Source: Candidatus Omnitrophota bacterium
Lineage (GTDB): Bacteria; Omnitrophota; Gorgyraeia; Duberdicusellales; 4484-171
Direction: 5' to 3'
DNA: 64,000 bases
Assembly: GCA_037146775.1 (NCBI GenBank)
Contig: JBAWWL010000007.1
Coordinates: forward strand, 1,536-65,535
Shown: positions 25,638 to 54,817 of the stretch, in pieces
Layout of the letters: every line of letters starts with the position of its first letter
How positions within the stretch are numbered: position 1 is the stretch's first letter
Translations under genes and position numbers: made by a program
Notes under the pieces: generated by a model
What the model was told of the DNA's origin: nothing
What the model saw: only the letters and a program-made list of their open reading frames with translations
Databases searched by the model: none

Positions 25638-25998
25638 TTTTGCTGGCACATTTGATTACTGTTGTTGACGCTGTGAGATAATTAAGTTATAATTGGAAAA
25701 TATTTTTTTGATAATTCGGTTTTTCTTACTTCAATATAGCTAAAAACACGCATGTTGGTGGGTAACTTTTATTAGCCAGTGTCTATAATGACGTGTTATA
25801 GATTTTTGTTATTGTTCATATCATATTTAATCTTTAATTTTTGATCTTTGATATTTGATTTTTAGTTCCCCGGTAGCTTCCGCCTCTCTGCCTTCGGCAG
25901 AGGGCGAGACCTCGCCACACGAAGGCGTGGCGGGCAATTGGTTTCTAGGTACAACCTTTGTTTAGATAGAAACCATTAGATGTTCTTTTAAAATTTAT

Positions 25999-26295
25999 TC
26001 CCCGGTAGCTCAATTGGTAGAGCGGCTGGCTGTGCGAAGAAGTGCAGCTTTCCCGAGAAATCGGGATTGAAAAAGCGGGCTAATTCAGGGAACCCCTATT
26101 CCATGTAAATGGAAGGGCAATCCTGAGCTAAGTGGCTAGAGCGAAAGCTTTAGCCTAAATGTGCAGAGACTATATACCCGCTGCCTAACCCCGTATCGTA
26201 TACGGGTATGGTGATGAGATAGTCCAGGCCTTAAAGTAATTTAAGGGATACCTGTAACCAGTAGGTCGTAGGTTCGAGCCCTACCCGGGGAGCCA
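25999..26295 (+). tRNA. tRNA (read as Asn, anticodon GTT) split by a 221-nt group I intron; exons 25999-26033 and 26255-26295
   Basis: Exon 1 TCCCCGG-TA-GCTC-AATTGGTA-GAGC-G-GCTGG-CTGT. Exon 2 TAA-CCAGT-AGGTC-GTAGG-TTCGAGC-CCTAC-CCGGGGA-G-CCA. Spliced length 76 nt with a 7-nt loop CTGTTAA. Confidence 0.7.
26034..26254 (+). ncRNA. Group I self-splicing intron in the tRNA anticodon loop
   Basis: 5' exon ends in U and pairs with an internal guide GCAGC (26044-26048), giving a U-G wobble at the splice site. The intron ends in G. R-like element GTGCAGAGACTATA (26161-26174) and S-like element ATGAGATAGTCC (26214-26226) match the group I consensus R/S sequences. Confidence 0.65.
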
Positions 26296-27894
26296 TATTG
26301 ACGTCTGACAGCGGATTGCTCCGTCAGACGCCGCAGTATCAAATAGCCCTATTTGGGGATACTTCCCGAATAGGGCTATTTTTATGCCCTCGGGGCCCAA
26401 GACGGCCTTTTTGAGGAGGAGCTTGAAGATCTCTTTCTTCTGGTAGGGATGCAGGGTGTCGAAAAGGCTGTTAAACTTGTCCACAGCCATCATCACGTCC
26501 TCTTTGCGGATCGCTTCACGCTGTATATCGTTTATCTGCGCGTCGAGTTCCACCATCCCGGCCTCAGTGTCTTTTCTTTCCTTGGCCAATTCATCGAGTT
26601 TTTCACGCAGGAATATGCTGTTGTCGGTTGTAGCAAGGGTTGTCCACTTGATCATGATGCCGTCAGCTTGCATTTTTATGTCTTCGAGCTTTCGCTTGAG
26701 CGCGTCACGTTGCGCGTTAAGCTGTGGCAGTTCTTTTTGAAGCTCAGCGTTTGCATCGCGCACCATTGTTTCAATAACGTCCTCTTGGGTTACGAGTCCT
26801 TTTATGTGGTCAATTACCACGCCTTCAATTTCATCGGCTGACATTTTGAATCTGCATGCTTTGCAGTGATAGTAAAAATATTTATTCCCTTTGTGGCCGG
26901 TTCCGCAGGTTCCTTCCATAGGCTTTCCGCAGTTTTCGCATAAGAGCAATCCGCTATTCAAAATATAAACATGTTTTATTGGCGCAGTCTCATTGTGTTT
27001 TGTCGCGGTGTTTTTGGCTAAAAGATTTTGAGTTTTGTAAAAAGTTTCTTCATCGATAATCGGTTCCCATACGGCAGGAACGGTGCGGTATCTGTTGTTT
27101 TCTGGAAGCTTGTCCTGATCCTGCGTTTTCCACTTTTTATTGATTTCCTTTTTACCGATATAAGCGAGATTCACAAGCATCTGTTTCATTGATGACCGGC
27201 CGAATGTTTGCGGTGATCGTGTTTTGTTGCGCCGGGATGTATATCCTTTGGTTCTGTAGCCGTTGGTATTTAACGCCCTGCCGGTTTCAATAAGCGATCC
27301 GCATTCCAGATATTTCCTGAAGGCGAACTGGATCGCGGCTTTTTCCTGTTCGCTTACTTCGAGGTAGCCTTTTTTGTTTGAATTCAAGTTATAGCCTAGT
27401 AAATGCCCGCCATTCCAGAGTCCGCGCTCTGCCCGAGCGATGGTAGCGTCTTTATTGCGCTCGGAGGTTTGCGTCCGTTCAAATTCTGCGAGCGCCATCA
27501 TGATCGTAATGAAAAGCTTGCCTTGCGAGGACGTGGTGTCGTAGTTTTGCTTTAAGCAGACGAACTCGACGTTGTATTTTGTGAGTATCTCGAAGAAGTT
27601 GAGAAAGTCTTTAACGGATCGGCTTATGCGGTCGAGGGCGGTGCAAATAACCGTGTCAACTTTACCGGATTCCATATCGGCAAAAAGTTGTGCGAATTCC
27701 GAGCTTCGAAATGAATCTTTACCCGATACGCCTTTAAGAATATACCGGCCGGTTTCAAGCCAGCTTTCACCGCAGGCTGTGTTCTTATATTCGATGTGGG
27801 CCTGTAACCGCTGGAGCTGGTTTGTGAGTGATCCTTCCGGGTTTCGGGCTTGTTTGTCGGTGCTGACTCTTATAACGAATCCACATTTTTTCAT
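26281..27894 (-). CDS. Large serine recombinase (island 1 integrase)
   Basis: N-terminal resolvase domain with catalytic Ser in CGFVIRVSTDKQ. Recombinase domain, zinc ribbon (CENCGKPMEGTCGTGHKGNKYFYYHCKAC) and coiled coil. The last 5 codons overlap the tRNA 3' end. Confidence 0.85.
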   Translation of the reverse strand: MKKCGFVIRVSTDKQARNPEGSLTNQLQRLQAHIEYKNTACGESWLETGRYILKGVSGKDSFRSSEFAQLFADMESGKVDTVICTALDRISRSVKDFLNFFEILTKYNVEFVCLKQNYDTTSSQGKLFITIMMALAEFERTQTSERNKDATIARAERGLWNGGHLLGYNLNSNKKGYLEVSEQEKAAIQFAFRKYLECGSLIETGRALNTNGYRTKGYTSRRNKTRSPQTFGRSSMKQMLVNLAYIGKKEINKKWKTQDQDKLPENNRYRTVPAVWEPIIDEETFYKTQNLLAKNTATKHNETAPIKHVYILNSGLLLCENCGKPMEGTCGTGHKGNKYFYYHCKACRFKMSADEIEGVVIDHIKGLVTQEDVIETMVRDANAELQKELPQLNAQRDALKRKLEDIKMQADGIMIKWTTLATTDNSIFLREKLDELAKERKDTEAGMVELDAQINDIQREAIRKEDVMMAVDKFNSLFDTLHPYQKKEIFKLLLKKAVLGPEGIKIALFGKYPQIGLFDTAASDGAIRCQTSIWLPG

Positions 27895-27949
27895 TCTTTC
27901 CTCCGTGTTATAGGTACAACAACACCCCTATAACAACAAGCGGTTCCAG

Positions 27950-28171
27950 TCAAGCTGAATCAATGCCTTGTGACGGCATATCGCGGTTTGCGATTTCGCG
28001 GGCATTGTCTATGGCTTGGCGGACTTTTTCATGTCGTTTAGGATCAACCCGCAATAATCCTTCTTTTTTAAGATAGGCGTATACGCCTTCCGCGAGGATC
28101 TTGGCGACCTTCCTTATCCGTTCGGCTTCGTCCGGGCTCTCAACGTATTCAACTTCAACTTTTAACGCCAT
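27950..28171 (-). CDS. Hypothetical small protein
   Basis: ORF only, adjacent to the recombinase. Confidence 0.3.
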   Translation of the reverse strand: MALKVEVEYVESPDEAERIRKVAKILAEGVYAYLKKEGLLRVDPKRHEKVRQAIDNAREIANRDMPSQGIDSA

Positions 28172-28264
28172 GCCTTAAGCCTCCTTAAGGCATATATACG
28201 GATTTTGATTACAGAATGTCGGAGGCGGTCATCACTGATACGTCAGTTATAGATTGGTAGTAAG

Positions 28265-28760
28265 TTTCGGCGTATTCTGATTTTGGGCTTGCAAGACACA
28301 CGCAAAACAAAGCGAAGGTGTCTCGCAGGCCCTCATCTTTTACGGCTTAGAACCTAAGTTAGCCCTATGTCGTAGCGCCGATGTCGGTTCGGGGATATTC
28401 TGATTCTGGGCTCGATTGAGACACCTGAAAAAAACGGCAAGGTGTCTTGATTGGGCCTTTTTATACCCCGCCGGTACATCCGTAATTATGGAGCTACTGG
28501 TTTCGGCGTATCCTGAATTTGAGCTCGTTTTCAAGACACCTGCAAAAAAACGCGGTGTCTTAAGGCGAGCTTTCTAATCACGGAGCCCTCCGTGATTTCC
28601 TAAGCCCTCAAACTGGCCTATTCTTTAGTTGGGCTTGCTTCAAGACACCGCAAAAAAAACAGCGCGGTGTCTTAGGCGGGCCCTAATTCATTTATACGGC
28701 AAAAGCCGTAGAAGTGTCGGCCTCAAAGGCACCTCGCACAACAGGAGGTGTCTTATGGGG
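28265..28760 (+). repeat. Array of 4-5 direct repeats (period about 90-125 bp), each with a hairpin AAGACACC-N10-14-GGTGTCTT
   Basis: Units begin near 28265, 28385, 28501, 28625 and 28715. The conserved 5' part is TTCGGCGTATYCTGAWTYTGGGCT. The last hairpin overlaps the RBS and start of the 28755 gene. Confidence 0.6.
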
Positions 28761-29327
28761 CTTACGTATGGGTGTGTATTTGAAGGTTGGGAGATCGCGG
28801 TTGCCAAGAAGCTGGTGGATCAGTTCAAGCGCAAGTGGAAGTGTTTTTCCAAGGATGATTTCGATGATCTTTTACAGGAATGTCTGAGCCATTGGTATTT
28901 CGTGAGGAAGAAATACGAAGTATCAAAAGGCGCGTCAAAATCAACGTATATGTCGAACGTCATTAAAAATAAGTTGATGGACATGGTCGAGGAGCGCATG
29001 GCGGAGAAGCGCAAGACTGATCAGATGAGTGTTTCGCTGTATGAGCCTATCAGCGAAGACGACGAAACCGCCATCATCGACAAAATCGCGGACAAATTGA
29101 CAGAGGATTTGACGGAAGTCTTTCGAGTAATCGGCTTAAAGCATGACCTTGCCAGTGCTTTGGAAAAACTTACGCCTCAGCAAAAAGAGCTTTGCCGTTT
29201 GCTTGAGGAAGGCGTGAGTATTAAGGAGGCCGGACAGAAGCTCAATATTCACCGAAGCACTGTTTATGAAGAAATAAAGCGTATCGCAGAGGCGTTCGAA
29301 GGAAACGGCTTAAAAAATTATCTATAA
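28755..29327 (+). CDS. Sigma-70-family-like / HTH transcription regulator (region 4-type HTH at C-terminus)
   Basis: C-terminal ELCRLLEEGVSIKEAGQKLNIHRSTVYEEIKRI helix-turn-helix. AGGAGG RBS before the ATG at 28755; the listed upstream extension to 28629 runs through the repeat array and is unlikely. Confidence 0.5.
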   Translation: MGLTYGCVFEGWEIAVAKKLVDQFKRKWKCFSKDDFDDLLQECLSHWYFVRKKYEVSKGASKSTYMSNVIKNKLMDMVEERMAEKRKTDQMSVSLYEPISEDDETAIIDKIADKLTEDLTEVFRVIGLKHDLASALEKLTPQQKELCRLLEEGVSIKEAGQKLNIHRSTVYEEIKRIAEAFEGNGLKNYL

Positions 29328-29382
29328 ATCACCCGACACTTTGGCGTGGGAGTCCGTATATATGCCTTAGGAGGAAAGAAAA

Positions 29383-29619
29383 GTGCAGGACACAGGTGAA
29401 ATATTTGAAGCAGGCAATATCTACTTAGCGGCCTATCTCGTTTACCGTGGATTTTCTATTCGCGGGCTTACCGGTTACGGCAGACAGAAACGCCTCCAGT
29501 TTGATAACTCCCCGGAAATTCAAAAGACCAGCAAAGAATTCTTCGAGAATTCCGATGCATCGCGTCTTTTCGATTGTTACCGCAAAACCAAAGACTATTT
29601 ATTTCAAAACGGAGTGTGA
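29383..29619 (+). CDS. Small hypothetical protein (possibly DUF5659-like, mobile-element associated)
   Basis: IFEAGNIYLAAYLVYRGFSI resembles small proteins seen next to phage or plasmid primases. Low-certainty recollection. Confidence 0.3.
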   Translation: MQDTGEIFEAGNIYLAAYLVYRGFSIRGLTGYGRQKRLQFDNSPEIQKTSKEFFENSDASRLFDCYRKTKDYLFQNGV

Positions 29620-29621
29620 TC

Positions 29622-31967
29622 ATGCAATTTGAGGAAAGAAAAGACAAGAAATGGATCATTGAAAATATCCCGCAGGAATTAAAAGCACTTCCCAACTGGG
29701 TCGGGTTTAAATTCATCCCGCAAGAAGGCAAAAAGCCCAAGAAAGACCCGATCAATGTCGCGACCGGCGGCCATGCTAAGTCTAACGATTCGAAAACATG
29801 GCGCCCATTTGATGAGGTTATCGCGAAAGCCGAAACGCTGAATTTTGACGCAATAGGCATTGCTGTTGTCGAGCCGTATATCGTTTGCGATATTGATCAT
29901 TCTGTTCGCGAAAAAATTATTGCACCGCTCGCAAAGAAAATAATATCCGCTTTTCCCAGTTACACCGAATATTCACCGAGTAAGACCGGCATTCATATTG
30001 TTGGCAAAGGCAAAATCCCAAGAGATCGTAAATTTACCACGCTCGACGTTGAGATGTATTCCGGCAGTAGGTTCTTTACTTTCACCGGCGACCTTGTGCC
30101 GGAGTGTCCTCAAGATATACGCGAAGTGGATATTTCGAAGCTCTACGGTGAGCTCGAGCAGATGGATGATGCGAATAAGCAGATCGACGCACTCTTCAAA
30201 CGCATAAAAAAGAGTAATGACGACACGTTTTTCGCGCTCTATGAAGGCAAGTGGCAGGATTCATATCCTTCTCAATCCGAGGCAGACCTTGCTCTGTGCA
30301 ATAAACTCGCCTTCTGGACGGGCAAGGATCCGGCGTTCATGGATTTGCTTTTCCGCAGGTCGGGCCTCATGCGCCCCAAGTGGGATGAAAAACATTTTAG
30401 CGACGGACGGACTTACGGCCAGTCGCTGATTGAGAAAGCCGTTGAGAGTTGCGCCAACTTCTATCACTCGTCAGGAAATGAATTTAAACACAAGCCCACT
30501 CAAGGCGAAATCATTACCTGCGACTGCGAGGAGAACAGTAAAGACTTTTTCCGCGATCAACATGGCAATTCAATAATCGTGCTTCCAGTCAGTGACCACC
30601 TCGAAGTGTGCCCTACAACGAGCACGAGTTTCAGGAATTGGACAGCTACCCGCTATCGTGAGAAATACGGTGTGCCACCCAAGACAGACGCAATCAATCA
30701 GGCGAAAGTTCAGATTGAGGCGCGGTGCGCGGCTTCCCGTCAGGTTGAATTATTTAATCGTGTCGGCTGGCATGATAACAAGATTTTCTTCGACTTGACC
30801 ACTGCAGATCATAAAGGCGTTGAGATCGACAGAATTGGTTGGAGAGTTGTTGGTATTCCTCCAATGTTCAGGCGTTATCAACATCAGGCTGAACAGGTCG
30901 TGCCGGTAGCTGGATGCGACCCGAAAGATTTCCTGCGGTTCTGCAATATCTCGATAGATGATCGTTGCCTTTTTATGGCGCTTATCGCTTCGTATTTTAT
31001 TCCAAATATTCCGCACGTTATTTTAAGCCAGACCGGCGAACAGGGATCTGGTAAATCGAACAACTCCCGCAAGATTAAAAGTTTGGTTGATCCCTCGCGT
31101 GTCACGCTCATCTCAAGCCCGAAAGATCTGGAACACGCGCAAATGATCGGCGAGAAACACTGGCTTATCTCATTTGATAATATCTCCAGAATTCCCGATT
31201 GGCTAAGTGACTACTATTGCCGTGGCGTGACAGGCGAAGGTGATATGAAACGAAGCCTGTACACCAATGACGATGAGTTTATCCGTTCATATCGCAGGTG
31301 TTTTGTTTTAAACGGTATCGGCTCATCCATGTATCGGCCTGATTTGCTTGATCGCTCGATCATCTTTGAAATTCCCATACTCAAAAGCTCCCGGCCGGAG
31401 AACGCCATGAATGAAGAATGGCACAAATCTCTACCGGGCATCTTAGGCGGGTTCTTCACTGTGGTTTCAAAAGCCATGAGTCGTGTGTCGCAAGTCAGCG
31501 GCCATGAGAAATTCCGCATGTCTGACTTCGCCCAGTGGGGCGGTGCTCTTGCCGAGGCTCTCGGGTATTCGCAGGATGAGTTTTTTAAGAAGTATCAGGA
31601 GTCCGTTGATCGCAAATGGCAGGACACCGCGGAGGACAGCGTATTTGCCAAAAGGATTACTGAATTCTTGGAGAGGCATGGCGGTTACTGGTCGGGTTCG
31701 CCCGCGGAACTTCTTTCTGAAATAAAGCCGGAAGATGATGAGAAAGGAATCCCCAAGACGGCCAAGTGGCTGTCGAATGAGCTGGTCAGGATCGCGCCGG
31801 TTATGCGTAATGTGGGCATTGACATCATCAAGGATAAACGCGAAGGCGGTACCGGCAGGCGCATTTTTGTTCTCAAGAAATGTGAGCGAAAAACTTGTGA
31901 GGATGGTGTGAGGATCGGGCAATTTTGTGAGGATGGCCATGAGGTGGACAGTGACCGGCCATTCTGA
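29622..31967 (+). CDS. Bifunctional primase-polymerase (prim-pol) with P4/D5-type helicase (SF3-like) domain
   Basis: N-terminal prim-pol motifs (FDAIGIAVVEPYIVCDIDH; D-x-D and His). Walker A SQTGEQGSGKSNNS. C-terminal CEDG repeats encoded by the iterons. GGAG RBS before the ATG at 29622. Confidence 0.7.
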   Translation: MQFEERKDKKWIIENIPQELKALPNWVGFKFIPQEGKKPKKDPINVATGGHAKSNDSKTWRPFDEVIAKAETLNFDAIGIAVVEPYIVCDIDHSVREKIIAPLAKKIISAFPSYTEYSPSKTGIHIVGKGKIPRDRKFTTLDVEMYSGSRFFTFTGDLVPECPQDIREVDISKLYGELEQMDDANKQIDALFKRIKKSNDDTFFALYEGKWQDSYPSQSEADLALCNKLAFWTGKDPAFMDLLFRRSGLMRPKWDEKHFSDGRTYGQSLIEKAVESCANFYHSSGNEFKHKPTQGEIITCDCEENSKDFFRDQHGNSIIVLPVSDHLEVCPTTSTSFRNWTATRYREKYGVPPKTDAINQAKVQIEARCAASRQVELFNRVGWHDNKIFFDLTTADHKGVEIDRIGWRVVGIPPMFRRYQHQAEQVVPVAGCDPKDFLRFCNISIDDRCLFMALIASYFIPNIPHVILSQTGEQGSGKSNNSRKIKSLVDPSRVTLISSPKDLEHAQMIGEKHWLISFDNISRIPDWLSDYYCRGVTGEGDMKRSLYTNDDEFIRSYRRCFVLNGIGSSMYRPDLLDRSIIFEIPILKSSRPENAMNEEWHKSLPGILGGFFTVVSKAMSRVSQVSGHEKFRMSDFAQWGGALAEALGYSQDEFFKKYQESVDRKWQDTAEDSVFAKRITEFLERHGGYWSGSPAELLSEIKPEDDEKGIPKTAKWLSNELVRIAPVMRNVGIDIIKDKREGGTGRRIFVLKKCERKTCEDGVRIGQFCEDGHEVDSDRPF

Positions 31968-32190
31968 TTTTGTGAGGATTGAGATGTATCCTCACGCAAA
32001 CTCACAGGCATCCTCACAGGGTCAACACGCCTGTTCACAAGTAGTTACACCAATCTGTGAGGATTGTGAGGCTATTTTCTTTAAAGTAGTAAGAAAGAAA
32101 AATATATAGGAAAGCTCATAAAAACTCACACGCAAATACATGAGGTTTAAGGATAGGGATTTTAGCCTCACGAACCTCACAAGCTCACAA
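31879..32190 (+). repeat. Iteron cluster: at least 6 direct TGTGAGGAT repeats plus about 4 inverted copies (ATCCTCACA / CCTCAC); putative origin of replication
   Basis: Direct copies at about 31894, 31905, 31924, 31969, 32054, 32063. Inverted copies at about 31988, 32009, 32167, 32176. The cluster spans the last 90 nt of the primase gene and the following 220 nt. Confidence 0.6.
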
Positions 32191-32273
32191 AAGGAGGTGA
32201 TGTCTGGGCAGGTGTAGAAGCGGAAAAACAATTGGCAATGTAATTAACATTTAACTAAATGAAAGGAAAAACC

Positions 32274-32948
32274 ATGAAACTGAATTTTTTGAACGCGTTA
32301 AACGGTAAGGTCAATCACGAAGAGATTGCCGAGCAGATCATCGCTCTGGAAATCAAACAAAAGGAATGCGAGAACGAGCGGAACCTCTCAAAGATTCTCT
32401 GCAAGGAAGTCCGGGGCAAGACCCTGTGCGGGGAAAAGATAAGCCCCGACGTCATTAAAAGCGCGGATAAAGGCTACGAGGAGGCATTGCTTAATCTCGA
32501 GATCGTTACCGAAGGCCTCGAGGAGCTCGGGAAAAAGCTCACTGTTGAGCTTGAGGCATACAGGCAAGACGAGGCAAAACGGATCGCTAATATGCGCAGT
32601 AAGCTTGAACAGGAGCGCGAGAAGGTCATGCGGGAGTTCGCCAAGGCCAAAGGAAGGCTGTTAGGGCTGGCTTTCGGTATTTACGGCCACCCGGCGGTTG
32701 CACGCAGGCACCTTGAGGTTTTACGGAGTTTTACCTATACCAATACGGATCAGTTTTCCGAGGAGTTCGAGGCTGAGCAAAACAAAACAGTCGCCGAGTT
32801 AAAACGTCCGACCTTTGCCGATCTTGATGAGGAGTGTCAGCAGAAAGACCGCTGGCTATCTTCTTTTAATATCGATGAAGAGTATGCCCGCATTCTCAAG
32901 AAGTATCGGGATCAGCATGGGGTTGAAGGTCAGCCGGTTGAGTCGTAG
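32274..32948 (+). CDS. Hypothetical coiled-coil protein
   Basis: Charged heptad-like sequence. AAGGA RBS before the ATG at 32274. Confidence 0.4.
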   Translation: MKLNFLNALNGKVNHEEIAEQIIALEIKQKECENERNLSKILCKEVRGKTLCGEKISPDVIKSADKGYEEALLNLEIVTEGLEELGKKLTVELEAYRQDEAKRIANMRSKLEQEREKVMREFAKAKGRLLGLAFGIYGHPAVARRHLEVLRSFTYTNTDQFSEEFEAEQNKTVAELKRPTFADLDEECQQKDRWLSSFNIDEEYARILKKYRDQHGVEGQPVES

Positions 32949-33380
32949 AGGCAAAGGACTGCGGAGGAGCCTGCGCGGGGTTTTCCTTTTTGTTTCCCTT
33001 CGTGCTGGCTTTGCCGGAGAAGCGCGTCCGGCAGGGGCGGTCTTGTTACCCGACCTCTTCGCACGCCCCCTTTTTTACGGGTCCTTGGAAGGGGGTGTCG
33101 GCCGAGGGTCGGGCGAGGCGCGGGCTTTGAGTGATGTCAGTTTTTGAAAATGTCATGTCGTGGTCGTATAGGCATATTTCGGGGTGTCCGGTTGGTAATG
33201 GCTCAAAAAGGCGTTTACCGTCGGGAAAACGGCTCAATTTTGGCTCAAAATCGGTTCAAAAACGATGTCCTACGAGTCGGACATATACGACATTTTCGAT
33301 GTCCGAATGTCCTATTGGTAGCGACAGGAAAATCAACTCGCATAAAACAAGGCGCGCTTCCATTTTTAAAAGAATAATAC

Positions 33381-33409
33381 TTGATTTTTTGTCTCTTGTG
33401 CAATATAAT
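33381..33409 (+). promoter_or_regulatory. Sigma70 promoter (TTGATT-N17-TATAAT) for the XRE gene, preceded by ATGTCCGA/TCGGACAT operator-like palindromes (33270-33320)
   Basis: Hexamers and the 17-nt spacer read directly. An ATG 8 nt downstream of the -10 suggests a leaderless mRNA. Confidence 0.4.
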
Positions 33410-33416
33410 GCAAGAT

Positions 33417-33647
33417 ATGCAAGATAGATCGAAGAATACAATCTCGCCGGAGCAAAATCCTATGGATATCGTCAAACAATTAGAGCTTTACCGTTTGGAG
33501 AACAGAATTACTCAAGATGAGCTTGCTAAGGAGATCGGCGTCAATTTCTCCACAGTGAGCCGGTGGCTCAATGGTAAAACCACTCCGAATAAGATTCAGC
33601 AGTATCATATAGAAAAATTATTAAAGCAAAAGGCAACGAGAAAATAA
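33417..33647 (+). CDS. XRE-family helix-turn-helix transcriptional regulator
   Basis: ITQDELAKEIGVNFSTVSRWLNGKTTPN is the classic XRE HTH. The start is uncertain (33417 leaderless or 33462); the listed TTG at 33381 overlaps the promoter. Confidence 0.6.
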   Translation: MQDRSKNTISPEQNPMDIVKQLELYRLENRITQDELAKEIGVNFSTVSRWLNGKTTPNKIQQYHIEKLLKQKATRK

Positions 33648-33654
33648 AGTATTT

Positions 33655-39258: not shown

Positions 39259-39411
39259 TTGAAATTATTGGCGCCAGAAGCTGATTGCTCGAATAATATG
39301 GTTAATCAAAGCGCGGTTGCAGAATTTGAGAAACAAATAAATGATTTGGTTTATGGATACTATGGTTTAACGAAAAAAAATAGACTTACTGGAAAACTCG
39401 GCTGGAGATAA

Positions 39412-40029
39412 ATGAATCAAAGAGACATTAAAGAGTTATACTTCATAACCCCGATTGATAATATTCCATCGATATTCCAACATGGGATTATGTCGCATAA
39501 TAAAATTAGGGCAAGCAAGTTATCTCATAAGAGCGTTGCTCATGGAGAAGTCCAGAAGCGCCGGGAGGACAAAGTCATTCCCGGAGGAAAACGCAAGTTG
39601 CATAATTATGTGAATCTGTACTTTAACCCTCGAAATTCAATGATGTATAGTCGTAAAAACTTACATGAAGATCTTTGCGTTTTGGCTGTACATGCGGATG
39701 TTTTAACTCATCAAGGTATTATTATCGCGGATGGAAATGCTTCGAGCAACTATACTCGTTTTTTTGAAACATCCGAAGGCATTAAATCTTTGGATAAAGA
39801 TTCCGTTTTTACTGAAAACTGGTGGGACCCGGATCATTACGAGATGTGTCGAAAACGAAGTGCGGCTTGTGCCGAAGCCTTATTCCCCGATCAATTGCCA
39901 CCATCCAAAATTACAGGGATATATGTATCGAGCGAAGAGGCTCATGGGAAGGTGGCGTCAATTATTGCCGATATTCGTATCAATATACCAGTTATTATAA
40001 ATGGCAAAATGTTTTTTAAGGAGGCTTGA
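39412..40029 (+). CDS. darT: DarT-like DNA ADP-ribosyltransferase toxin (DUF4433)
   Basis: N-terminal ELYFITPIDNIPSIFQHGIMS matches the DarT/DUF4433 signature (YHFTHI-NL-SIL-GL). About 205 aa. Immediately followed by a macrodomain gene. Confidence 0.65.
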   Translation: MNQRDIKELYFITPIDNIPSIFQHGIMSHNKIRASKLSHKSVAHGEVQKRREDKVIPGGKRKLHNYVNLYFNPRNSMMYSRKNLHEDLCVLAVHADVLTHQGIIIADGNASSNYTRFFETSEGIKSLDKDSVFTENWWDPDHYEMCRKRSAACAEALFPDQLPPSKITGIYVSSEEAHGKVASIIADIRINIPVIINGKMFFKEA

Positions 40030-40030
40030 A

Positions 40031-41152
40031 ATGGTAAAGAATATTTTAATCGGGGATATTTTTAATTCGGAAACTCAGACATTGGTAAACACTGTCAATT
40101 GCGTCGGTATCATGGGTAAAGGAATCGCGGCTGAATTCAAGAAACGCTATCCCGAGATGTTTGATGATTATGTGGCACGTTGCCAAAAAGGCGAAGTCAA
40201 GCCGGGCGTTCCTTACCTATTCAAAATGCCTTCGCTTTTTGCTCCGCAGGTGATTAATTTTCCAACAAAAAGCGATTGGCGAGCGGCATCGCGGGTCGAG
40301 GATATAGAAAAGGGTCTCAAAATACTTATTTCGAAATATAAAGAATGGGGTATTGAGTCAATAGCGGTTCCCCCGTTAGGCTGTGGCAATGGTCAATTAC
40401 TTTGGGAAACCGTTGGCCCTCTGATTTACAAGTATCTCTCGAAGCTGGATATTTTGGTCAAAATTTATGCTCCATATGGCACACCGCCTGCACAGTTGAC
40501 CGAGAAGTTTCTCTCGCAAGAGTATAATTTGCGGGATGCTAAGTCAGGCGAGGCAATCCTTCAGAAACTGGAACCCGCTTGGGTCGCGTTGATTGAGATA
40601 GTTCATCGCATTGAAAAGCAGGCGTATCATATGCCTGTCGGCAGGACTATTTTTCAAAAGATTGCCTATGTTGCCACTGCATTAGGTATCCCTACCGGTT
40701 TGGCGCATGTTCGTGGATCATATGGGCCTTATTGCAAAGAGCTAAATGATGTTAAAAAACGATTATCGAATGATGGATTATTGCAGGAAGAAAAAAGCGG
40801 GTCTATGTTTCAGGTTATTCCGGGCCTCGCGTATGAGAAGAATCGTTTGAAATATCAGGATACTTTTCAAAAATGGGATAATATGATCGACAAGACGGTT
40901 GATCTTTTTCTGCGATTAGATACTAATAAGGCCGAAATTGTGGCAACCGTTCTTTTCGTTGAGCGCGAAATGAATAAAAACAATATGTCTGAGGATGATA
41001 TTTTGCAAGAAGTGATGAAGTGGAAACAGAAGCGCATTCCTCCAATTAATAAGAAAGAGGTCGCTCAAGCTATCCGCAATCTTGGTGTGTTGAAATGGTT
41101 TACGCTGAAGCCTTCGGCAGACTTGCCGGTTGAGGAAGATTGGGCAAATTAA
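40031..41152 (+). CDS. darG: DarG-like macrodomain antitoxin (N-terminal macro domain + C-terminal DarT-binding region)
   Basis: LVNTVNCVGIMGKGIAAEFKKRYPEMF matches the DarG/ADP-ribose-processing macro domain. AAGGAGG RBS inside the 3' end of darT. The listed start at 40001 is unlikely. Confidence 0.7.
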   Translation: MVKNILIGDIFNSETQTLVNTVNCVGIMGKGIAAEFKKRYPEMFDDYVARCQKGEVKPGVPYLFKMPSLFAPQVINFPTKSDWRAASRVEDIEKGLKILISKYKEWGIESIAVPPLGCGNGQLLWETVGPLIYKYLSKLDILVKIYAPYGTPPAQLTEKFLSQEYNLRDAKSGEAILQKLEPAWVALIEIVHRIEKQAYHMPVGRTIFQKIAYVATALGIPTGLAHVRGSYGPYCKELNDVKKRLSNDGLLQEEKSGSMFQVIPGLAYEKNRLKYQDTFQKWDNMIDKTVDLFLRLDTNKAEIVATVLFVEREMNKNNMSEDDILQEVMKWKQKRIPPINKKEVAQAIRNLGVLKWFTLKPSADLPVEEDWAN

Positions 41153-41158
41153 AAAATT

Positions 41159-41587
41159 ATGGATATAAAAAACGATAACCATGACTTTTTACTCAAAGAG
41201 ATTGATCTAATTCAAGATGTGATCAGGCGAATGGCTCATAATTCATTCTTGATCAAAGGATGGGCTGTTACTTTGATCGTTGGTTCTTTATTATTAAAAG
41301 GGACGATGCTTGAAGTTTATATTGCGGTGATTCCGCTGATTTCTTTTTGGATTCTGGACGCTTATTTTCTTAGGCAAGAACGTCTATATCGGAAACTTTA
41401 CGATTGGGTTATTAATAATCGGCACAAAACAAGCGAATATCTTTTTGATTTAAGCACGTCGCGATTCAAGGGCGCGGTGCAGTCAATTCCTCGAATTATG
41501 TTTTCGATTACTTTGGGCATCTTTTATGGTTCGATTGCAGTTTTATTGGCTATTTATATTGTCATGCTTTTGAAATTTCATGCATAA
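41159..41587 (+). CDS. Small 3-TM membrane protein, possible membrane effector
   Basis: Three hydrophobic helices; no catalytic motif. 7-nt gap from darG and 13-nt gap to the TIR gene. Confidence 0.45.
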   Translation: MDIKNDNHDFLLKEIDLIQDVIRRMAHNSFLIKGWAVTLIVGSLLLKGTMLEVYIAVIPLISFWILDAYFLRQERLYRKLYDWVINNRHKTSEYLFDLSTSRFKGAVQSIPRIMFSITLGIFYGSIAVLLAIYIVMLLKFHA

Positions 41588-41599
41588 GGAATTGATATT

Positions 41600-42181
41600 A
41601 TGGCTAAACAAGTATTTTTTAGCTTTCATTATGATGATGTAAAAACATTTCGTGCGAATGTTGTTAGGAACCACGGATTTACAAAGGAAGATGGTCAAGA
41701 AGCAGGATTTTTTGATGCCTCAATCTGGGAAGATGCGAAACTACATGGTGATATTTCTGTAAAAAGACTCATCAATTCGAATCTGGACAACACATCGGTT
41801 ACTTGTCTTTTAATTGGTACAGGAACGTGGAATAGGCGTTGGGTCAGATATGAGATATTGAAAAGCTATGATCGGGGCAACGCACTGTTTGGAGTTCATA
41901 TCAACAGCGTGACTGATAAAAATAGGCAGACGTTTCCTCAAGGACTAAATCCATTCGATTATTTAGGATTTATCGTTAGTGAAGACGGGAAGAAGCTTAC
42001 TTATCAAGAACACGATGGAACAAGTTGGAAAGTTTATCAAGACTTGCCACCTAAAATGACAAACTTTGACAGACAACATTGGAATAAAGGTTTTAAGCTA
42101 TCCAGCTGGGTTCCGTGTTACGACTGGACAAGTGGGGATGGATATAATAAATTTTCATCTTGGGTAGAGAGTGCCAAATAA
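41600..42181 (+). CDS. TIR-like domain protein (ThsB-like / DUF1863-type)
   Basis: N-terminus VFFSFHYDDVKTF. WVRYEI (Trp-x-x-x-Glu) region typical of bacterial TIR NADase domains. 193 aa. Confidence 0.55.
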   Translation: MAKQVFFSFHYDDVKTFRANVVRNHGFTKEDGQEAGFFDASIWEDAKLHGDISVKRLINSNLDNTSVTCLLIGTGTWNRRWVRYEILKSYDRGNALFGVHINSVTDKNRQTFPQGLNPFDYLGFIVSEDGKKLTYQEHDGTSWKVYQDLPPKMTNFDRQHWNKGFKLSSWVPCYDWTSGDGYNKFSSWVESAK

Positions 42182-42251
42182 ACCCTATGGCGTTGTGGTT
42201 CGAGCTGTAGGCTAACTTGGCGATACTCTCTAAAACTTGGAGGTTTGAACA

Positions 42252-42497
42252 ATGGGTAATCGAGCAGAAAATAATTTCAAAAAACGTTTCGGTGATCCTC
42301 CTCGGTTTAATGTTATATACCCGAAAAAACCTTTAGAAGGGTCTGAGCGGATATACCGCAATCAAAAAATCGCTGACGCGGTCGATAAAGTCTTAACCGG
42401 TATTTTAGGACGGAAGCCAACAAAAGACGAATTGATCGGACGCAAGCGTATAAATGAAGCGGAAATCCAAGCGTGCTTGGTCGGTAAAACGGAATAA
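42252..42497 (+). CDS. Small hypothetical protein
   Basis: ORF within the operon; no motif. Confidence 0.3.
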   Translation: MGNRAENNFKKRFGDPPRFNVIYPKKPLEGSERIYRNQKIADAVDKVLTGILGRKPTKDELIGRKRINEAEIQACLVGKTE

Positions 42498-42561
42498 GCG
42501 CAGATTACGCTATATTTAGAGCGAGACTTTTTTATAGCCATTATTAAGTTAGGAGTTATTC

Positions 42562-43542
42562 GTGGCATCAATGGGCGATTTAATTGATGAATTGAAACGT
42601 GTCGATTTTGAAAGACCGATTGTCTTTATCAGTTACGCTGGCGAGGAGCTTGCGTTAGCGGATTTTATTAGGGACATCATAAGTCGTCTCACTGAATTTA
42701 AGGTTGAGGCGTTTGTTGCTAAAAGAGATATCCCGCCCGGAGATAATCCACTAAAAACAATGATGGAAGAAAAACTTAAGAATGCAAAAGCGATTATTCC
42801 TATATGTTCTGTCAAGTCGAAGATGTCATCATGGGTCTGGTGGGAATCGGCCGCTGTTTGGGCTAAGGACAAAAAGGTTTATCCCCTGTTTACCAATATT
42901 TCAGCAAGTGATTTTGGTGCGCCTTTAACGCTGGTAAGCCAAGGGAAAGAATATTTTATTAGATCGGAGTTTATTGAGACAGTGAGAATGGTTTGTGAGG
43001 ATGTCGGGACCCCGGTTGTCGATAAGGATTTAACCAAAGAGGAATGGGATGAATATGAGAAGCTAAAAACTGAGTATTCTAAGCCGGAAACTTCAGCAAA
43101 AGTTACAGCGGATTATAAGAAACTTGAAATGACTCAGGATTTACACAAATATTCTTTTGTTTTTGAAATCGAGAATAGGAATCAGAAAAGATTTGATGAT
43201 GTTGATGTAGAGCTTTATTTCCCGGTAGACTACATTGAGGAGAAAAAATGGGAATATCCGCATTTAAGATCTTCTACTTCACATGACAAACCGGGTTACT
43301 TATGCTTAACATTTTCTTTTTCCGGGTTGCCAGAAACTGCGAAAAAACAATTCATCAGCAGTTTATTGCCCGGTAAAAAGCTAAAGGTTTTTGGTGAAGA
43401 TGGAATGACCAAACTTCATTATTACATGGATCATGATCGTTGGGACAAAAGGTTTAAGTATGATGTGCAGTGGAAAGTTTATATCAATGGCGGAGCCCCT
43501 CAAGAAGGCAGTATCCCATTAAATTCAATTCAGTATTTTTAA
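42562..43542 (+). CDS. TIR-domain protein with about 170-aa C-terminal domain of unknown function
   Basis: IVFISYAGEELALADFIRDII...SSWVWWESAAVW matches the bacterial TIR pattern (FISY..D, SxWCxxE-like). Confidence 0.6.
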   Translation: MASMGDLIDELKRVDFERPIVFISYAGEELALADFIRDIISRLTEFKVEAFVAKRDIPPGDNPLKTMMEEKLKNAKAIIPICSVKSKMSSWVWWESAAVWAKDKKVYPLFTNISASDFGAPLTLVSQGKEYFIRSEFIETVRMVCEDVGTPVVDKDLTKEEWDEYEKLKTEYSKPETSAKVTADYKKLEMTQDLHKYSFVFEIENRNQKRFDDVDVELYFPVDYIEEKKWEYPHLRSSTSHDKPGYLCLTFSFSGLPETAKKQFISSLLPGKKLKVFGEDGMTKLHYYMDHDRWDKRFKYDVQWKVYINGGAPQEGSIPLNSIQYF

Positions 43543-43781
43543 GGATGGTTGGTCTGTAATCGCGTTACAAAGCTTTCTTGTTCTTTGGGACTTTTAAGCA
43601 TCTGCCGTAGCTGGCGTTCAGTTATCAGTCGTTTGGGCATGGGATCGCCCAGCGCTTCAACGGCTTCGACCAGCGAGGGGTTAAGGTCGAGAAGGCTCGT
43701 ATATTGCCAGATTCGGACCCGGGAGATGCCTACCTTGCGAGCAAGGTCACTTTCGTTCTTGGCTTGGCCGGATTCAATCAT
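43539..43781 (-). CDS. Small HTH DNA-binding protein next to the island junction (candidate excisionase/RDF or ParB-like fragment)
   Basis: ESDLARKVGISRVRIWQY helix-turn-helix-like segment. Location adjacent to the 13-bp repeat. Confidence 0.35.
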   Translation of the reverse strand: MIESGQAKNESDLARKVGISRVRIWQYTSLLDLNPSLVEAVEALGDPMPKRLITERQLRQMLKSPKEQESFVTRLQTNHP

Positions 43782-43964
43782 GCGGGCGTATTCCTTGGCT
43801 CGAAAGATGGGGTTGCGGTAGGTACGGACGGGTTTTGGGGGTATTCTTCGGGCCTGTTCAGGCGTCTGGCCTTCTCGGATGACTGAAATGAGCCGGTGAT
43901 TCCACTTTTCCTTCTCGGTAATGAAGGCGGTGAACTGCCATAAAAGCCCGCAGTCAGACGACTG

Positions 43965-43977
43965 CCCGGGGAGCCAT
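43965..43977 (+). repeat. Second copy of the tRNA 3'-end repeat CCCGGGGAGCCAT (att-like site)
   Basis: Exact 13/13 match to 26284-26296; no other copy was noticed in the window. Confidence 0.6.
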
Positions 43978-44014
43978 CTTTATATCTCTCAATCCATAAG
44001 GAGAGATGCAAAAA

Positions 44015-53321: not shown

Positions 53322-53335
53322 CTTAAGAAATTATA

Positions 53336-54265: not shown

Positions 54266-54266
54266 A

Positions 54267-54809: not shown

Positions 54810-54817
54810 CATATATG

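Follow-up and report, generated by a model that had tools for sequence, protein, structure and literature searches.

Why the gene of a large serine recombinase should end inside a tRNA gene is the question raised by this locus. In the window (the whole stretch of DNA analysed, 64,000 nt from an Omnitrophota bacterium), the last codons of the recombinase gene LSR1, (I)WLPG, overlie a 13-bp direct repeat, as had been pointed out in an earlier note on the sequence, and its stop codon TAG lies within the tRNA. What that note missed is that the overlap is not incidental: attP is located within the gene, and integration removes a whole C-terminal domain. On the reading developed below, which we consider probable, the region between the repeats (island 1) is an integrative element with its own replication module, whose integration splits LSR1 and whose excision would rebuild a 678-aa fusion protein.

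The repeat, CCCGGGGAGCCAT, occurs exactly twice in the window, on the + strand at 26284-26296 and at 43965-43977, and two copies were found in none of 100 dinucleotide shuffles; two exact copies are not expected by chance. The first copy consists of the last T-stem base, the acceptor 3' strand, the discriminator G, CCA and one further base, the tRNA end within the core being 12 nt long and the 13th base flanking the tRNA. ARAGORN called no tRNA at this copy because of a group I intron of 221 nt within the tRNA-Asn(GUU) gene (Rfam RF00028, 82.6 bits, E 2e-21, matched at 26024-26246). When the exons were joined by hand, the product and the intron-less tRNA-Asn(GUU) of metagenome locus L063 (76 nt) had the same sequence. 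The 28-nt 3' end of this tRNA recurs in 116 metagenome contigs. Both the recurrence of the 13-mer 17.7 kb downstream and its assignment to a tRNA 3' end, as claimed earlier, were thus confirmed. Judging from the sequence, the crossover dinucleotide would be GA at 26290-26291. The features of the integration site are as follows.

25999-26033, + strand: tRNA-Asn(GUU) 5' exon (acceptor, D arm, anticodon stem, C32 U33 G34 U35), parsed by hand and checked through the joined exons against the L063 tRNA
26034-26254, + strand: group I intron of 221 nt, separating anticodon positions 35 and 36, preceded by U and ending in G; RF00028, boundaries from the L063 comparison
26255-26295, + strand: tRNA-Asn 3' exon with genome-encoded CCA, from the L063 comparison
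26284-26296, + strand: attL core, first exact copy of the repeat, on which the centre of the reconstructed attP inverted repeat falls
43965-43977, + strand: attR core, second exact copy

These observations supported island 1 (26297-43977) as a discrete insertion at the tRNA gene's 3' end, bounded by the 13-bp direct repeat. That the 17.7 kb instead belongs to the ancestral chromosome, or is an island that arrived in another way, with the 13-mer repeated by chance, is extremely improbable and already contradicted, not only by the shuffles, but also by homologues in which the repeat is the exact exchange point between conserved and variable sequence. Furthermore, the same module of LSR, 73-aa gene and primase-polymerase (prim-pol) recurs at tRNA-Asn beside the conserved dnaX-recR in many phyla with differing cargo. 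In the closest relatives with an unoccupied tRNA-Asn, L063 and L106, island 1 is absent, but their downstream flanks differ from that of the window, and the one point favouring ancestral DNA is that no same-species empty site was found among the metagenome and genome loci compared.

Pfam (Resolvase, 1e-29; Recombinase, 1.2e-16; Zn_ribbon_recom, 2e-5) and PHROG identified the 537-aa ORF adjoining attL as a large serine recombinase and not a tyrosine integrase, in agreement with the earlier note. When position 43977 was joined to 26297 through the core, this 537-codon ORF was extended in frame to a single 678-codon ORF, the attP site lying within the LSR1 frame at codons 533-537. The 141 residues added comprise a linker and a DNA-binding domain of the ParB/Noc/KorB type. 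The reconstructed attP carries two 8-bp half-sites, gtcagacg and cgtctgac, which are separated by 22 nt and have their centre at GA in the 13-bp tRNA identity; this symmetry is weak in homologous contig L001 and absent in L002.

26281-27894, - strand: LSR1, integrated truncated form, 537 aa, with catalytic, recombinase and zinc-ribbon domains and a coiled coil (Pfam; PHROG integrase, 5.9e-99; AlphaFold)
43539-43964, - strand: detached LSR1 3' part, 141 codons, in frame across the circular junction, with an internal ATG at 43781 (in-frame join, full-length homologues, ParB-type domain, disordered linker)
26297-26330, + strand: P' arm of attP, within the LSR1 coding sequence, with half-site cgtctgac at 26302-26309 and an extra inverted copy gtcagacg at 26323-26330; conserved in L001 and L002 up to the core
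43950-43964, + strand: P arm of attP, read from the sequence, with half-site gtcagacg at 43953-43960 mirroring cgtctgac at 26302-26309 over a 22-nt spacer

The profile of the extra domain matched ParB/Spo0J (4umk, E 3.7e-8), Noc and KorB. An AlphaFold model of the detached part had pLDDT values above 90 over residues 45-140, and the top 46 Foldseek matches were all ParB-superfamily DNA-binding domains (probability about 1.0; TM 0.6 against the isolated Noc domain). By profile and fold, the C-terminal 95 residues thus resemble the DNA-binding domain of ParB, Noc, KorB and SopB; unlike in those proteins, the domain in LSR1 is accompanied by neither an N-terminal CTP-binding nor a C-terminal dimerisation domain and is tethered to a recombinase via a disordered linker. 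The AlphaFold model of full-length LSR1 was confident at residues 1-510 and 585-675, and residues 538-578, directly after those encoded by the core, scored below 50; the cut is accordingly predicted to fall within the disordered linker.

Since the chance that the 61-codon linker would be open in frame by itself was, by our own estimate, only about 0.02, the case for a split gene rests on the homologues. At least seven full-length public homologues, namely P0001 (679 aa), P0005 (679 aa), P0014, P0097, P0099, P0115 and the gene of L012, span 93-99% of the joined protein. In more than 100 others, coverage is 79-80% and the sequence stops just past a conserved ..IRCQTSIWLP; their tails (WLPxxDSNL..) are what the tRNA acceptor and T arm encode when read antisense. 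An ORF of the LSR1 family ends inside an opposite-strand tRNA-Asn in at least 25 of 43 genome loci, and inside tRNA-Arg(GCG) in two; the family at tRNA-Asn spans several phyla, with many members from Dehalococcoidia. Apart from a few substitutions, L001 and L002 agree with the window at the DNA level up to ATATGGCTCCCC and then diverge completely, which places the exchange point at the core. Full-length ORFs could derive from junctions of tandem islands instead of circles; L001, L002 and L171 all end in the repeat-array region between the LSR operon and the regulator gene, and circularity was demonstrated for none of these three contigs. The family loci were viewed with flanks of up to 10 kb, shorter than the islands, and both island ends were seen together in no other member.

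It might be argued that the distal ORF (43539-43781) encodes a small ParB-like HTH regulator of its own, situated beside attR, that the open frame across the junction is functionless, and that the 537-aa form is in both states the actual recombinase. Indeed, no canonical LSR domain is missing from the truncated LSR1, which is of the usual length; a possible ribosome-binding site (AAGGA) lies 10 nt upstream of the internal ATG at 43781, which is the called start in at least nine homologue clusters; and among the 782 representative clusters of the extra-domain family (E ≤ 1e-3), the best 150 are all short stand-alone ORFs. For the comparable gene dsiB, an overlap with attL was likewise held to be possibly trivial (McMurdie et al., 2011; PMC3146451). 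We nevertheless regard this explanation as unlikely. In at least seven independent sequences, the LSR frame stays open for about 110-145 codons although the linkers are very different, a second LSR family (P0178, P0220) keeps its frame open over the same core in a different frame, LSR2 of the window and other relatives have a domain of the same kind as an unsplit C-terminus, and no promoter-like site was found ahead of the detached fragment in the integrated state. In addition, 77 domain clusters have 30 or more residues upstream, and in 37 of these TGGCTCCCC encodes a tripeptide there (GSP or WLP) at an almost constant distance, 28-34 residues in 32 of the 37. The core was confirmed at the DNA level in L163, L175 and L177; in L175, one domain fragment sits on the unexpected side of a tRNA. 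Even with the split gene that we favour, the C-terminal piece may also be produced separately, from the internal ATG used as the called start in many homologues.

The remaining features of island 1, whose left 7 kb has a GC content of 0.46-0.49 compared with about 0.40 in the flank, are listed below.

27950-28171, - strand: 73-aa HTH protein encoded upstream of LSR1 and retained with the LSR in related islands, a candidate for an accessory or directionality factor (weak HTH match; homologues beside LSR in 13 loci)
28264-28760, no strand: repeat array separating the regulator gene from the divergent LSR operon, made up of 4-5 units, about 115-125 bp long, that all carry the inverted repeat AAGACACC..GGTGTCTT
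28629-29327, + strand: Sigma-70-like/HTH regulator (Sigma70_r2, Sigma70_r4_2; PHROG sigma factor)
29383-29619, + strand: DUF5659-like small protein (weak, E 4.8e-4)
29574-31967, + strand: primase-polymerase/helicase, replication module, start codon uncertain (NrS-1 polymerase HBD, 4e-29; PHROG DNA primase, 9e-75)
31894-32183, no strand: TGTGAGGAT iterons in both orientations, putative replication origin (repeats D6, D9, D10, I1, I4, I5)
33381-33647, + strand: XRE-type HTH regulator (HTH_3, 5.5e-10)
33655-39258, + strand: 1867-aa DUF4011/AAA_11/AAA_12/MTES_1575/DUF3320 helicase-nuclease, candidate defence system PDC-S37, Hhe-like
39412-41152, + strand: DarT-DarG toxin-antitoxin defence pair at 39412-40029 and 40001-41152 (Pfam DarT, 2e-46, and Macro; PADLOC DarT and DarG, 1.6e-89)
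41159-43542, + strand: PDC-M50A membrane protein, PDC-M50B/ThsB-like TIR protein, 81-aa ORF and TIR (bSEFIR-like) protein

The prim-pol/helicase is 90% identical in L004 and is kept beside LSR in many loci. Pfam, PHROG and PADLOC annotation of island 1 revealed no structural, capsid or transfer genes, and the content was otherwise as described in the earlier note (sigma-like regulator, prim-pol helicase, iterons, XRE protein and defence cargo).

In the mechanism we propose, recombination with the tRNA end would restore the final 12 nt of the tRNA with DNA from the element, keeping the tRNA intact, would leave the 13-bp direct repeat, and would split the recombinase gene in two. The integrated copy would then encode the 537-aa protein with all canonical LSR domains, ending a few tRNA-antisense codons past the core, and the last 141 codons, for the flexible linker and the ParB/Noc/KorB-type domain, would be stranded 17.7 kb away at attR. 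The 678-aa fusion would be encoded only by the excised circle or by a junction with another island of the same kind. We presume here that there is a circular intermediate, that the prim-pol helicase replicates it from the iterons, and that the 537-aa and 678-aa forms differ in function. We speculate that the tethered domain might bind element sites, for instance the AAGACACC..GGTGTCTT array, and take part in regulating or maintaining the free element or in choosing its site.

P4-like satellites, PICIs and PLEs likewise sit at tRNA genes as chromosomal islands; they combine a primase/helicase with regulators and defence cargo, and their set of virion genes is not complete. These satellites use tyrosine integrases and are defined by helper-exploiting genes (capsid redirection, small terminase, helper-induced derepression). 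Island 1 uses a serine recombinase instead, and no gene for exploiting a helper phage or for packaging was found in it by Pfam and PHROG annotation; the designation as a P4-like satellite is not supported by its content. Placement of attP inside an element gene is known from SSV1-type archaeal integrases and from the integration-dependent immunity of mycobacteriophages such as BPs, both with tyrosine recombinases: in SSV1, integration cuts the integrase into two inactive parts, and in BPs, the repressor and integrase lose a degradation tag. As in these systems, the integrated and free states of island 1 encode different protein forms, attP inside an element gene being a built-in sensor of the integration state. 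LSR1 differs in being a serine recombinase from which an accessory DNA-binding domain is lost, with every catalytic and core DNA-binding domain retained.

The closest layout is that of the Dehalococcoides ssrA islands, in which DsiB, a serine recombinase of about 540 aa, is encoded on the reverse strand beside attL, its gene always overlapping attL with the stop codon only outside the island (McMurdie et al., 2011; PMC3146451). Flanked by a direct repeat of the tRNA-like gene's 3' end, these islands encode integration but no transfer, and the authors suggested, as a guess only, that the dsiB gene may be complete only on the circle or beside an adjacent island (PMC3146451). Compared by description, island 1 shares the size, strand, attL overlap and outside stop codon of the recombinase gene, the tRNA-end repeat and the lack of transfer genes. 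It differs in its target (tRNA-Asn, 12 nt plus one flanking base, versus ssrA, 20 bp, in the T loop), in lacking a second small serine recombinase (DsiA), RecF-like and Mom-like genes and a separate ParB gene, and in its replication module of prim-pol helicase and iterons. With a similar layout already published (PMC3146451), what is new here is the attP site within the LSR1 gene and the identity of the missing part, 141 codons including the ParB-type domain. These published islands, together with the occurrence of the LSR1 family at tRNA-Asn in several phyla, also show that tRNA targeting by large serine recombinases is not as uncommon as had been supposed.

Tycheposons of Prochlorococcus are also tRNA-targeted and cargo-carrying with their own primase/helicase genes, as is island 1; they lie in tandem beside tRNAs and seed variable islands, and most use tyrosine recombinases, with large serine recombinases in 27 of 937 (bioRxiv 10.1101/2020.12.28.424599). 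They differ from island 1 in their marine cyanobacterial hosts and in their mostly nutrient-acquisition or PICI-like cargo, and no split integrase was described there (bioRxiv 10.1101/2020.12.28.424599).

Beyond the second repeat lies a further region of low GC content (0.32-0.36), island 2.

44290-46358, - strand: recombination module of island 2, consisting of LSR2 (543 aa, 44290-45921, with an unsplit C-terminal HTH of the same kind; PHROG integrase, 1.8e-118) and an upstream DUF2924 protein (45891-46358)
46867-64000, + strand: cargo, namely a PLD-SNF2 fusion, type IIG/DrmMI-like methyltransferase, Dam-like methylase, NERD-UvrD helicase, DrmA-DrmB fusion (DISARM-like) and a further helicase

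The module begins 313 bp past the repeat, just beyond it as the earlier note had stated, but to call it a second DUF2924 module was wrong: the 73-aa protein of island 1 gave no DUF2924 match, and island 1 has no DUF2924 gene at all. Nor was the serial integration into a regenerated site drawn from it upheld, since no third 13-mer (up to three mismatches), no further GGGGAGCCA and no tRNA were found in the 37.7 kb after the second repeat, up to coordinate 81690, where the search for the right end of island 2 likewise ended without a match. Moreover, LSR2 is only 30% identical to LSR1, and its frame does not cross the core. In L090 and L052, about 330 bp between the tRNA and the LSR2-like gene are common to L108, which has no LSR2, suggesting a separate LSR2 target just downstream of the tRNA. 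The sole 13-mer common to the LSR2-proximal region and the downstream DNA sits in an HSP70 gene and looks like chance. Against this evidence, a tandem array, with the tRNA-Asn end occupied first by island 2 and the regenerated end afterwards by island 1, has a little less than an even prospect of being correct. LSR2 is close to the repeat and oriented as LSR1, low GC and mobile-element content extend over at least 37 kb, and among the Dehalococcoides ssrA islands tandem arrays are the rule and accretion is common (PMC3146451). In other contigs, LSR genes of several families are found on the strand opposite to tRNA-Asn, 70-870 bp downstream of it. LSR2-like genes with DUF2924 recur downstream of tRNA-Asn in L090 and L152 (2.3 kb, pointing away from the tRNA) and partially in L052, so that tandem insertion stays plausible.

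The 13-mer CCCGGGGAGCCAT was shown to have exactly two copies in the window (26284-26296 and 43965-43977), as expected from the direct repeat with which the earlier note had delimited a first island, and two copies of it arose in none of 100 shuffles of the window. The first copy had been taken for the 3' end of a tRNA gene, and this assignment was confirmed. ARAGORN called only a tRNA-Lys and a tRNA-Ser elsewhere in the window and none at the repeat, because the gene is interrupted by a group I intron (Rfam, 26024-26246, 82.6 bits). Read by hand, it proved to be an intron-split tRNA-Asn(GUU) with the layout TCCCCGG..GGCTGGCTGT, intron, TAACCAGT..CCCGGGGAGCCA, in which the intron occupies 221 nt (26034-26254) between anticodon positions 35 and 36. 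Once joined, the exons were identical to the intron-less 76-nt tRNA-Asn of the metagenome locus L063, and the 13-mer was found to comprise the last T-stem base, the acceptor 3' strand, the discriminator G, CCA and one flanking T. A tmRNA as owner of this 3' end was ruled out, since Rfam reported a group I intron at this place, the exons are those of tRNA-Asn, and neither ARAGORN nor Rfam detected a tmRNA in the window. The features concerned are as follows.

Features of the two islands (positions in the window)
26034-26254, group I intron within tRNA-Asn(GUU)
26284-26296, attL core (first copy of the 13-mer)
26281-27894, minus strand, large serine recombinase of island 1 (LSR1)
28264-28760, repeat array
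31894-32183, iterons
43539-43964, minus strand, detached C-terminal piece of LSR1 (141 codons)
43965-43977, attR core (second copy of the 13-mer)
44290-45921, minus strand, large serine recombinase of island 2 (LSR2)
45891-46358, minus strand, DUF2924 gene

Unoccupied tRNA-Asn sites were found in the relatives L063 and L106 among 116 metagenome contigs with the same tRNA end, and none of the 116 carried an empty attB with the window's own flank (CTTTATATCTC..). As for the intron, it is absent from L063, a close relative whose neighbouring response regulator is 92% identical and whose exons are the same, and it is present in 4 genome loci and, among the 116 metagenome tRNA-Asn loci, in about 20; a literature search found no paper on a group I intron in a bacterial tRNA-Asn. 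In addition, a 13-nt duplicate of the tRNA 5' end (TTCCCCGGTAGCT) lies at 25862-25874, about 125 nt upstream of the tRNA and followed by GC-rich hairpins. Extra 5'-exon-like copies upstream of the tRNA were also seen in the relatives L059, L014 and L106, and the copy may be a relic of 5'-side recombination or of intron mobility.

LSR1 (537 aa) adjoins attL on the minus strand, and its last codons (..I W L P G) indeed run over the repeat, as had been noted earlier, with the stop codon in the tRNA. Pfam assigned it the Resolvase, Recombinase and Zn_ribbon_recom domains. The catalytic domain (PF00239, E 1e-29) covers residues 8-158, with R9, S11 and the other catalytic motif residues invariant in the 14 homologues aligned, and its nearest solved relative is the catalytic domain of TP901-1 integrase; the recombinase domain (PF07508) scored 1.2e-16, and the zinc ribbon (PF13408, 2e-5) fell slightly below the cut-off. 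In the AlphaFold model, long helices at residues 389-459 between the zinc-ribbon strands form a coiled coil. With a catalytic domain, a recombinase domain and a zinc ribbon with embedded coiled coil, LSR1 has the domain make-up of a large serine recombinase.

When island 1 was circularised through the 13-mer, the LSR1 frame stayed open for 141 further codons, to 43539, giving a protein of 678 aa. By our estimate, the linker alone would be open by chance with a probability of about 0.02, and it is the homologues, rather than the open frame alone, that settle the predicted in-frame continuity of LSR1 with the C-terminal piece. In a search of 5.8 billion proteins with the joined sequence, P0001 and P0005 (679 aa), P0014, P0097, P0099 and P0115 covered 93-99% of it. 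More than 100 other homologues covered just 79-80% and diverged directly after the conserved ..IRCQTSIWLP, their tails (e.g., WLPREDSNLG or WLPGQDSNLQPSG) being antisense translations of the tRNA acceptor stem and T arm. At least 25 of the 43 GTDB genome loci of the LSR1 family have the ORF end inside tRNA-Asn(GTT) on the opposite strand, 4 of them with the same group I intron, and a dnaX-recR-tRNA-Asn synteny is common to Omnitrophota and Planctomycetes MAGs. The DNA of two metagenome loci, L001 and L002, matched the window with few substitutions until ATATGGCTCCCC and was unrelated beyond, which marks the core as the exchange point and indicates that the C-terminal part moves with the cargo end. 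A full-length copy of the gene was present in a Thermodesulfovibrionia MAG (L012). No internal or terminal repeats marking a circle were found in the parts of L001, L002 and L012 that were covered, and L171 and L173 gave no evidence of a circular form. The attR with the detached gene part was sought in the 43 genome loci and 7 viral contigs, and only chance 10-12-mers occurred within the 10-kb flanks; the islands are therefore longer than the flank.

Several members of the family depart from this pattern. A subclade at 2 of the 43 loci (L021 and L023) ends in tRNA-Arg(GCG), with the tail WRP instead of WLP, and is a natural switch of target specificity. In L001, a decayed second copy of the detached C-terminal part lies in the cargo (5158-5589), 2 kb further on, with its core broken by a 6-nt insertion (TGGaaaaaGCTCCCC); we regard it as a trace of accretion, that is, of growth by fusing with neighbours. 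One Dehalococcoidia genome carries two members (L027 and L031) about 15 kb apart and convergent on contig CAXXTF010000002.1, and their tails, alike and some 60 aa long, correspond neither to a tRNA read in antisense nor to the ParB-type domain. In L173, the stretch 4379-10580 contains a related prim-pol gene and, after it, a 595-aa serine recombinase abutting a MiaB-like gene, with no tRNA nearby; the element is possibly a relative whose target is a protein-coding gene.

A profile built from the C-terminal piece and 70 homologues matched the DNA-binding domains of ParB/Spo0J (4umk, E 3.7e-8), Noc and KorB. AlphaFold predicted the piece with pLDDT >90 over residues 45-140, and the top 46 Foldseek matches in the PDB were all Noc/ParB/KorB/SopB DNA-binding domains; the single-sequence Pfam match to HTH_ParB was slightly under the cut-off (22.4 vs 22.6 bits). 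As modelled, the detached piece carries a helix-turn-helix domain of the ParB/Noc/KorB fold. This likeness to the ParB superfamily lies in the DNA-binding domain, whereas the N-terminal CTPase of ParB is absent from the 678-aa protein, in which Pfam found no ParB_N match. In the AlphaFold model of the 678-aa protein, residues 1-510 (catalytic, recombinase, zinc ribbon and coiled coil) and 585-675 were confident, and residues 538-578, immediately after the core-encoded residues 533-537, scored <50, so that integration cuts in a flexible linker. According to the model, what remains after the cut is a complete canonical large serine recombinase, deprived of an accessory DNA-binding domain that had been tethered to it. 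A conserved internal ATG at 43781 may also allow the detached piece to be produced by itself; a promoter scan of the integrated state revealed nothing promoter-like upstream of it. Read along the LSR gene, the core is followed at once by a terminator-like hairpin (GCAGTCGTCTGACTGC then GGGCTTTTAT; 43950-43965, minus strand) that overlaps the P-arm half-site; either the hairpin could reduce read-through into the C-terminal part, or it may be the att half-site only.

The attP of a serine integrase is short (~50 bp), with imperfect inverted symmetry, a non-palindromic central dinucleotide and little identity to attB beyond the core. The reconstructed attP, gtcagacg-actgCCCGGGGAGCCATattga-cgtctgac, displayed two half-sites separated by 22 nt, whose inverted symmetry is perfect over 8 bp (11 of 12 when the flanks are counted); the centre of the site is the GA at 26290-26291, i.e., tRNA positions 71-72. 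Judged from its sequence, this site appears to have the shape expected for a serine integrase; the half-site symmetry was weaker in L001 and absent in L002, and the crossover position is thus a putative one. The 13-bp identity of attP and attB exceeds the usual length, which we attribute to the need to rebuild the tRNA. An 'RTF' motif after the core in the other frame was considered as antisense of the tRNA T loop; its spacing was 6 nt too long, and it is more likely a conserved P-arm half-site.

To see how far the layout extends, the 141-residue piece was scored against 1.84 billion representatives, which yielded a C-terminal domain family of 782 matches at E <= 1e-3; the best 150 of these were all ORFs of 62-319 aa. 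In 77 matches the domain is preceded by at least 30 residues, and 37 of these contained a tripeptide encoded by TGGCTCCCC at a nearly fixed distance from the domain (28-34 residues in 32 of the 37, 52-62 in 5). In most cases the tripeptide was GSP, a product of the same tRNA core in another reading frame; at the DNA level, the core was verified in L163, L175/176 and L177-179. P0178 and P0220 were C-terminal pieces of another LSR family, joined via GSP to the same domain, and members of that family abut tRNA-Asn too (L055 and L159). LSR2 in the window has the same kind of C-terminal HTH unsplit, with a PHROG 'recombinase' match at 448-537. From the unsplit domain in LSR2 and the GSP fusions in another family, the ParB-type domain appears to be ancestral to this LSR group, attP having apparently come into the linker in at least two lineages. 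The LSR1 family itself is spread over Omnitrophota, Planctomycetota, Chloroflexota/Dehalococcoidia, Elusimicrobia and others. One contig, L175, does not fit a simple split-gene model: it carries three tRNA cores (4997, 7765 and 9387), and on the minus strand a tRNA, whole or partial, lies at about 7765; the 13-bp repeat at 4997 bounds a 2.8-kb islet without a recombinase, and the third core with a ParB-type fragment lies across the tRNA from the others, beside a phosphate regulon.

Upstream of LSR1 lies the gene for a 73-aa HTH protein, kept beside the LSR in 13 loci, whose product is the obvious candidate directionality factor. Divergent from this operon are the genes for a sigma-like regulator, a DUF5659-like protein and a 797-aa prim-pol/helicase (NrS-1 HBD, 4e-29; PHROG primase, 9e-75), with TGTGAGGAT iterons after them at 31894-32183. 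The array at 28264-28760, which separates the LSR operon from the sigma-like gene, has 4-5 units; each measures about 115-125 bp and contains the inverted repeat AAGACACC..GGTGTCTT. Three metagenome contigs (L001, L002 and L171), independent of one another and from related elements, break off in this region, which suggests that the repeats break assemblies. GC was 0.46-0.49 across the recombination and replication module versus ~0.40 in the flank. The defence cargo comprises a 1867-aa PDC-S37/Hhe-like helicase-nuclease, DarT-DarG, PDC-M50A/B (a ThsB-like TIR protein) and another TIR protein. The absence of structural genes reported earlier held, virion, packaging and conjugation genes all being without a match in island 1. 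The likeness to a P4-like satellite stood in one respect: the prim-pol/helicase and iterons of its own agree with P4-like satellites and PICIs, which have their own primase/helicase replication module. In contrast, those elements use a tyrosine integrase, whereas both recombinases here are serine recombinases, and Pfam, PHROGs and PADLOC gave no match in island 1 to capsid-size redirection, a small terminase or a helper-responsive repressor by which a helper is exploited, several small ORFs having no match at all.

Serine integrases carry out attP x attB integration without host factors and need a directionality factor for excision, and they are prized for genome engineering because they are one-directional; to our knowledge, the natural setting and the reversal of this direction are known for few phages only. 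In tyrosine systems such as SSV1 and mycobacteriophage BPs, integration is known to split a gene of the element. For island 1, we consider it most probable that LSR1 recombines an attP within its own gene with the end of tRNA-Asn. The 13 bp of the element would restore the tRNA, the integrase would lose its tethered ParB-type domain, and the domain would be regained by excision or at a junction with a like island. The domain may bind sites on the element (the AAGACACC..GGTGTCTT array and the iterons are candidates) and in this way serve regulation, maintenance or the choice of attP. With attP inside the integrase gene, the two enzyme forms would report the free versus the inserted state. A far bolder and rather doubtful extension is that a whole widespread class of tRNA-targeting serine integrases has a built-in state switch, in which topology sets the direction of recombination or expression. 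The ParB-tethered integrase of the free element would then read element sites for attP choice, self-repression or episome maintenance, integration would leave a plain integrase and a detachable DNA-binding fragment at the far end, and topology would replace, or add to, a separate directionality factor. Such an arrangement would have been selected rather than accidental, as is suggested by two divergent LSR families crossing the same tRNA core in different frames and by the 782 clusters of the domain family.

Tandem islands at ssrA have been described in Dehalococcoides, and the authors suggested that the recombinase may be fully functional only on the circle or beside an adjacent island, the missing gene part not being identified there (McMurdie et al., 2011; PMC3146451). 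Judging from the published description, the recombinase gene of those islands (DsiB) resembles that of island 1 in lying at attL and overlapping it, with its stop codon outside the island, and Dehalococcoidia members exist in the LSR1 family. The target differs, being the single-copy ssrA (tmRNA) with a 20-bp repeat there and tRNA-Asn here, as does the gene neighbourhood: the Dehalococcoides module has six genes, including a second, small serine recombinase (DsiA) and RecF-like, ParB-domain and Mom-like genes, whereas LSR1 has as neighbours the genes for the 73-aa HTH protein, the sigma-like regulator, the DUF5659 protein and the prim-pol helicase. Among tycheposons, tRNA-targeted replicative cargo elements, 27 of 937 have a large serine recombinase (bioRxiv 10.1101/2020.12.28.424599). 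Our literature search found no paper on tRNA-Asn targeting by serine integrases and, save for the Dehalococcoides speculation (PMC3146451), none on a serine integrase completed, or a ParB-type domain restored, by circularisation. New with respect to this precedent would be the identification of the missing part as a ParB-type domain and of tRNA-Asn as the target. The 2011 guess is hereby turned into a concrete testable model, with an attP, a compact and well-defined attB (the tRNA-Asn end) present in many bacteria, 537-aa and 678-aa enzyme forms and a ParB-type domain.

Beyond the second repeat, the second module of LSR2 and a DUF2924 protein was verified to lie 313 bp past it; LSR2 is 30% identical to LSR1. 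The pair is followed by a DISARM-like set (PLD-SNF2, DrmMI-like methyltransferase and DrmA-DrmB fusion) and more helicases. That island 2 is a tandem insertion at the regenerated tRNA-Asn end is plausible, at slightly under an even chance in our judgement. LSR2-like and DUF2924 genes recur downstream of tRNA-Asn elsewhere: LSR genes of several families, including LSR2-like ones with DUF2924, lie 70-870 bp downstream of it in other contigs, and L152 has a further such pair 2.3 kb away. However, in L090 and L052 the LSR2-like genes are separated from the tRNA by a flank of ~330 bp common to L108, which is without LSR2. Moreover, the search for the other end of island 2 beyond the window, proposed in the earlier note, found neither the repeat nor GGGGAGCCA a third time, and no tRNA, up to 81690, the sequence having been extended from 64000 via a Logan contig of SRR12676968, a protein of which is identical to one that NCBI assigns to a Candidatus Omnitrophota MAG. 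Another 13-mer, GAGCCATTATATA (44253 and 68238), was considered as a boundary and taken as chance, being inside an HSP70 gene and without flanking similarity. No relatives of LSR2 were found in viral contigs. Overall, tRNA-Asn represents a hot spot for anti-phage systems placed by several serine-integrase families in poorly studied phyla.

The fusions at 46867-62003 are unusual for a DISARM-like system, PLD with SNF2 helicase being 1071 aa and DrmA with DrmB 1746 aa, and a type IIG-like methyltransferase, a Dam-like methylase and a NERD-UvrD helicase also occur there. Low-GC, mosaic, mobile-looking content persists over 64000-81690, with a GrpE-like/HSP70 pair (661 and 659 aa; L174 4398-8368, window ~65400-69400), a ParB_N-methyltransferase fusion and a terminase-like 551-aa protein (L174 11984-15553, window ~73000-76600) and a WYL protein, and additional mobile or defence modules follow island 2 in a patchwork. 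Directly after the second repeat (43978-44175), a TATCTCTC-WWW-ATC motif was observed. It recurs ~190 and 310 bp downstream of tRNA-Asn in L090, L108 and L052, where the sequences diverge, and may be another attachment site near the tRNA.
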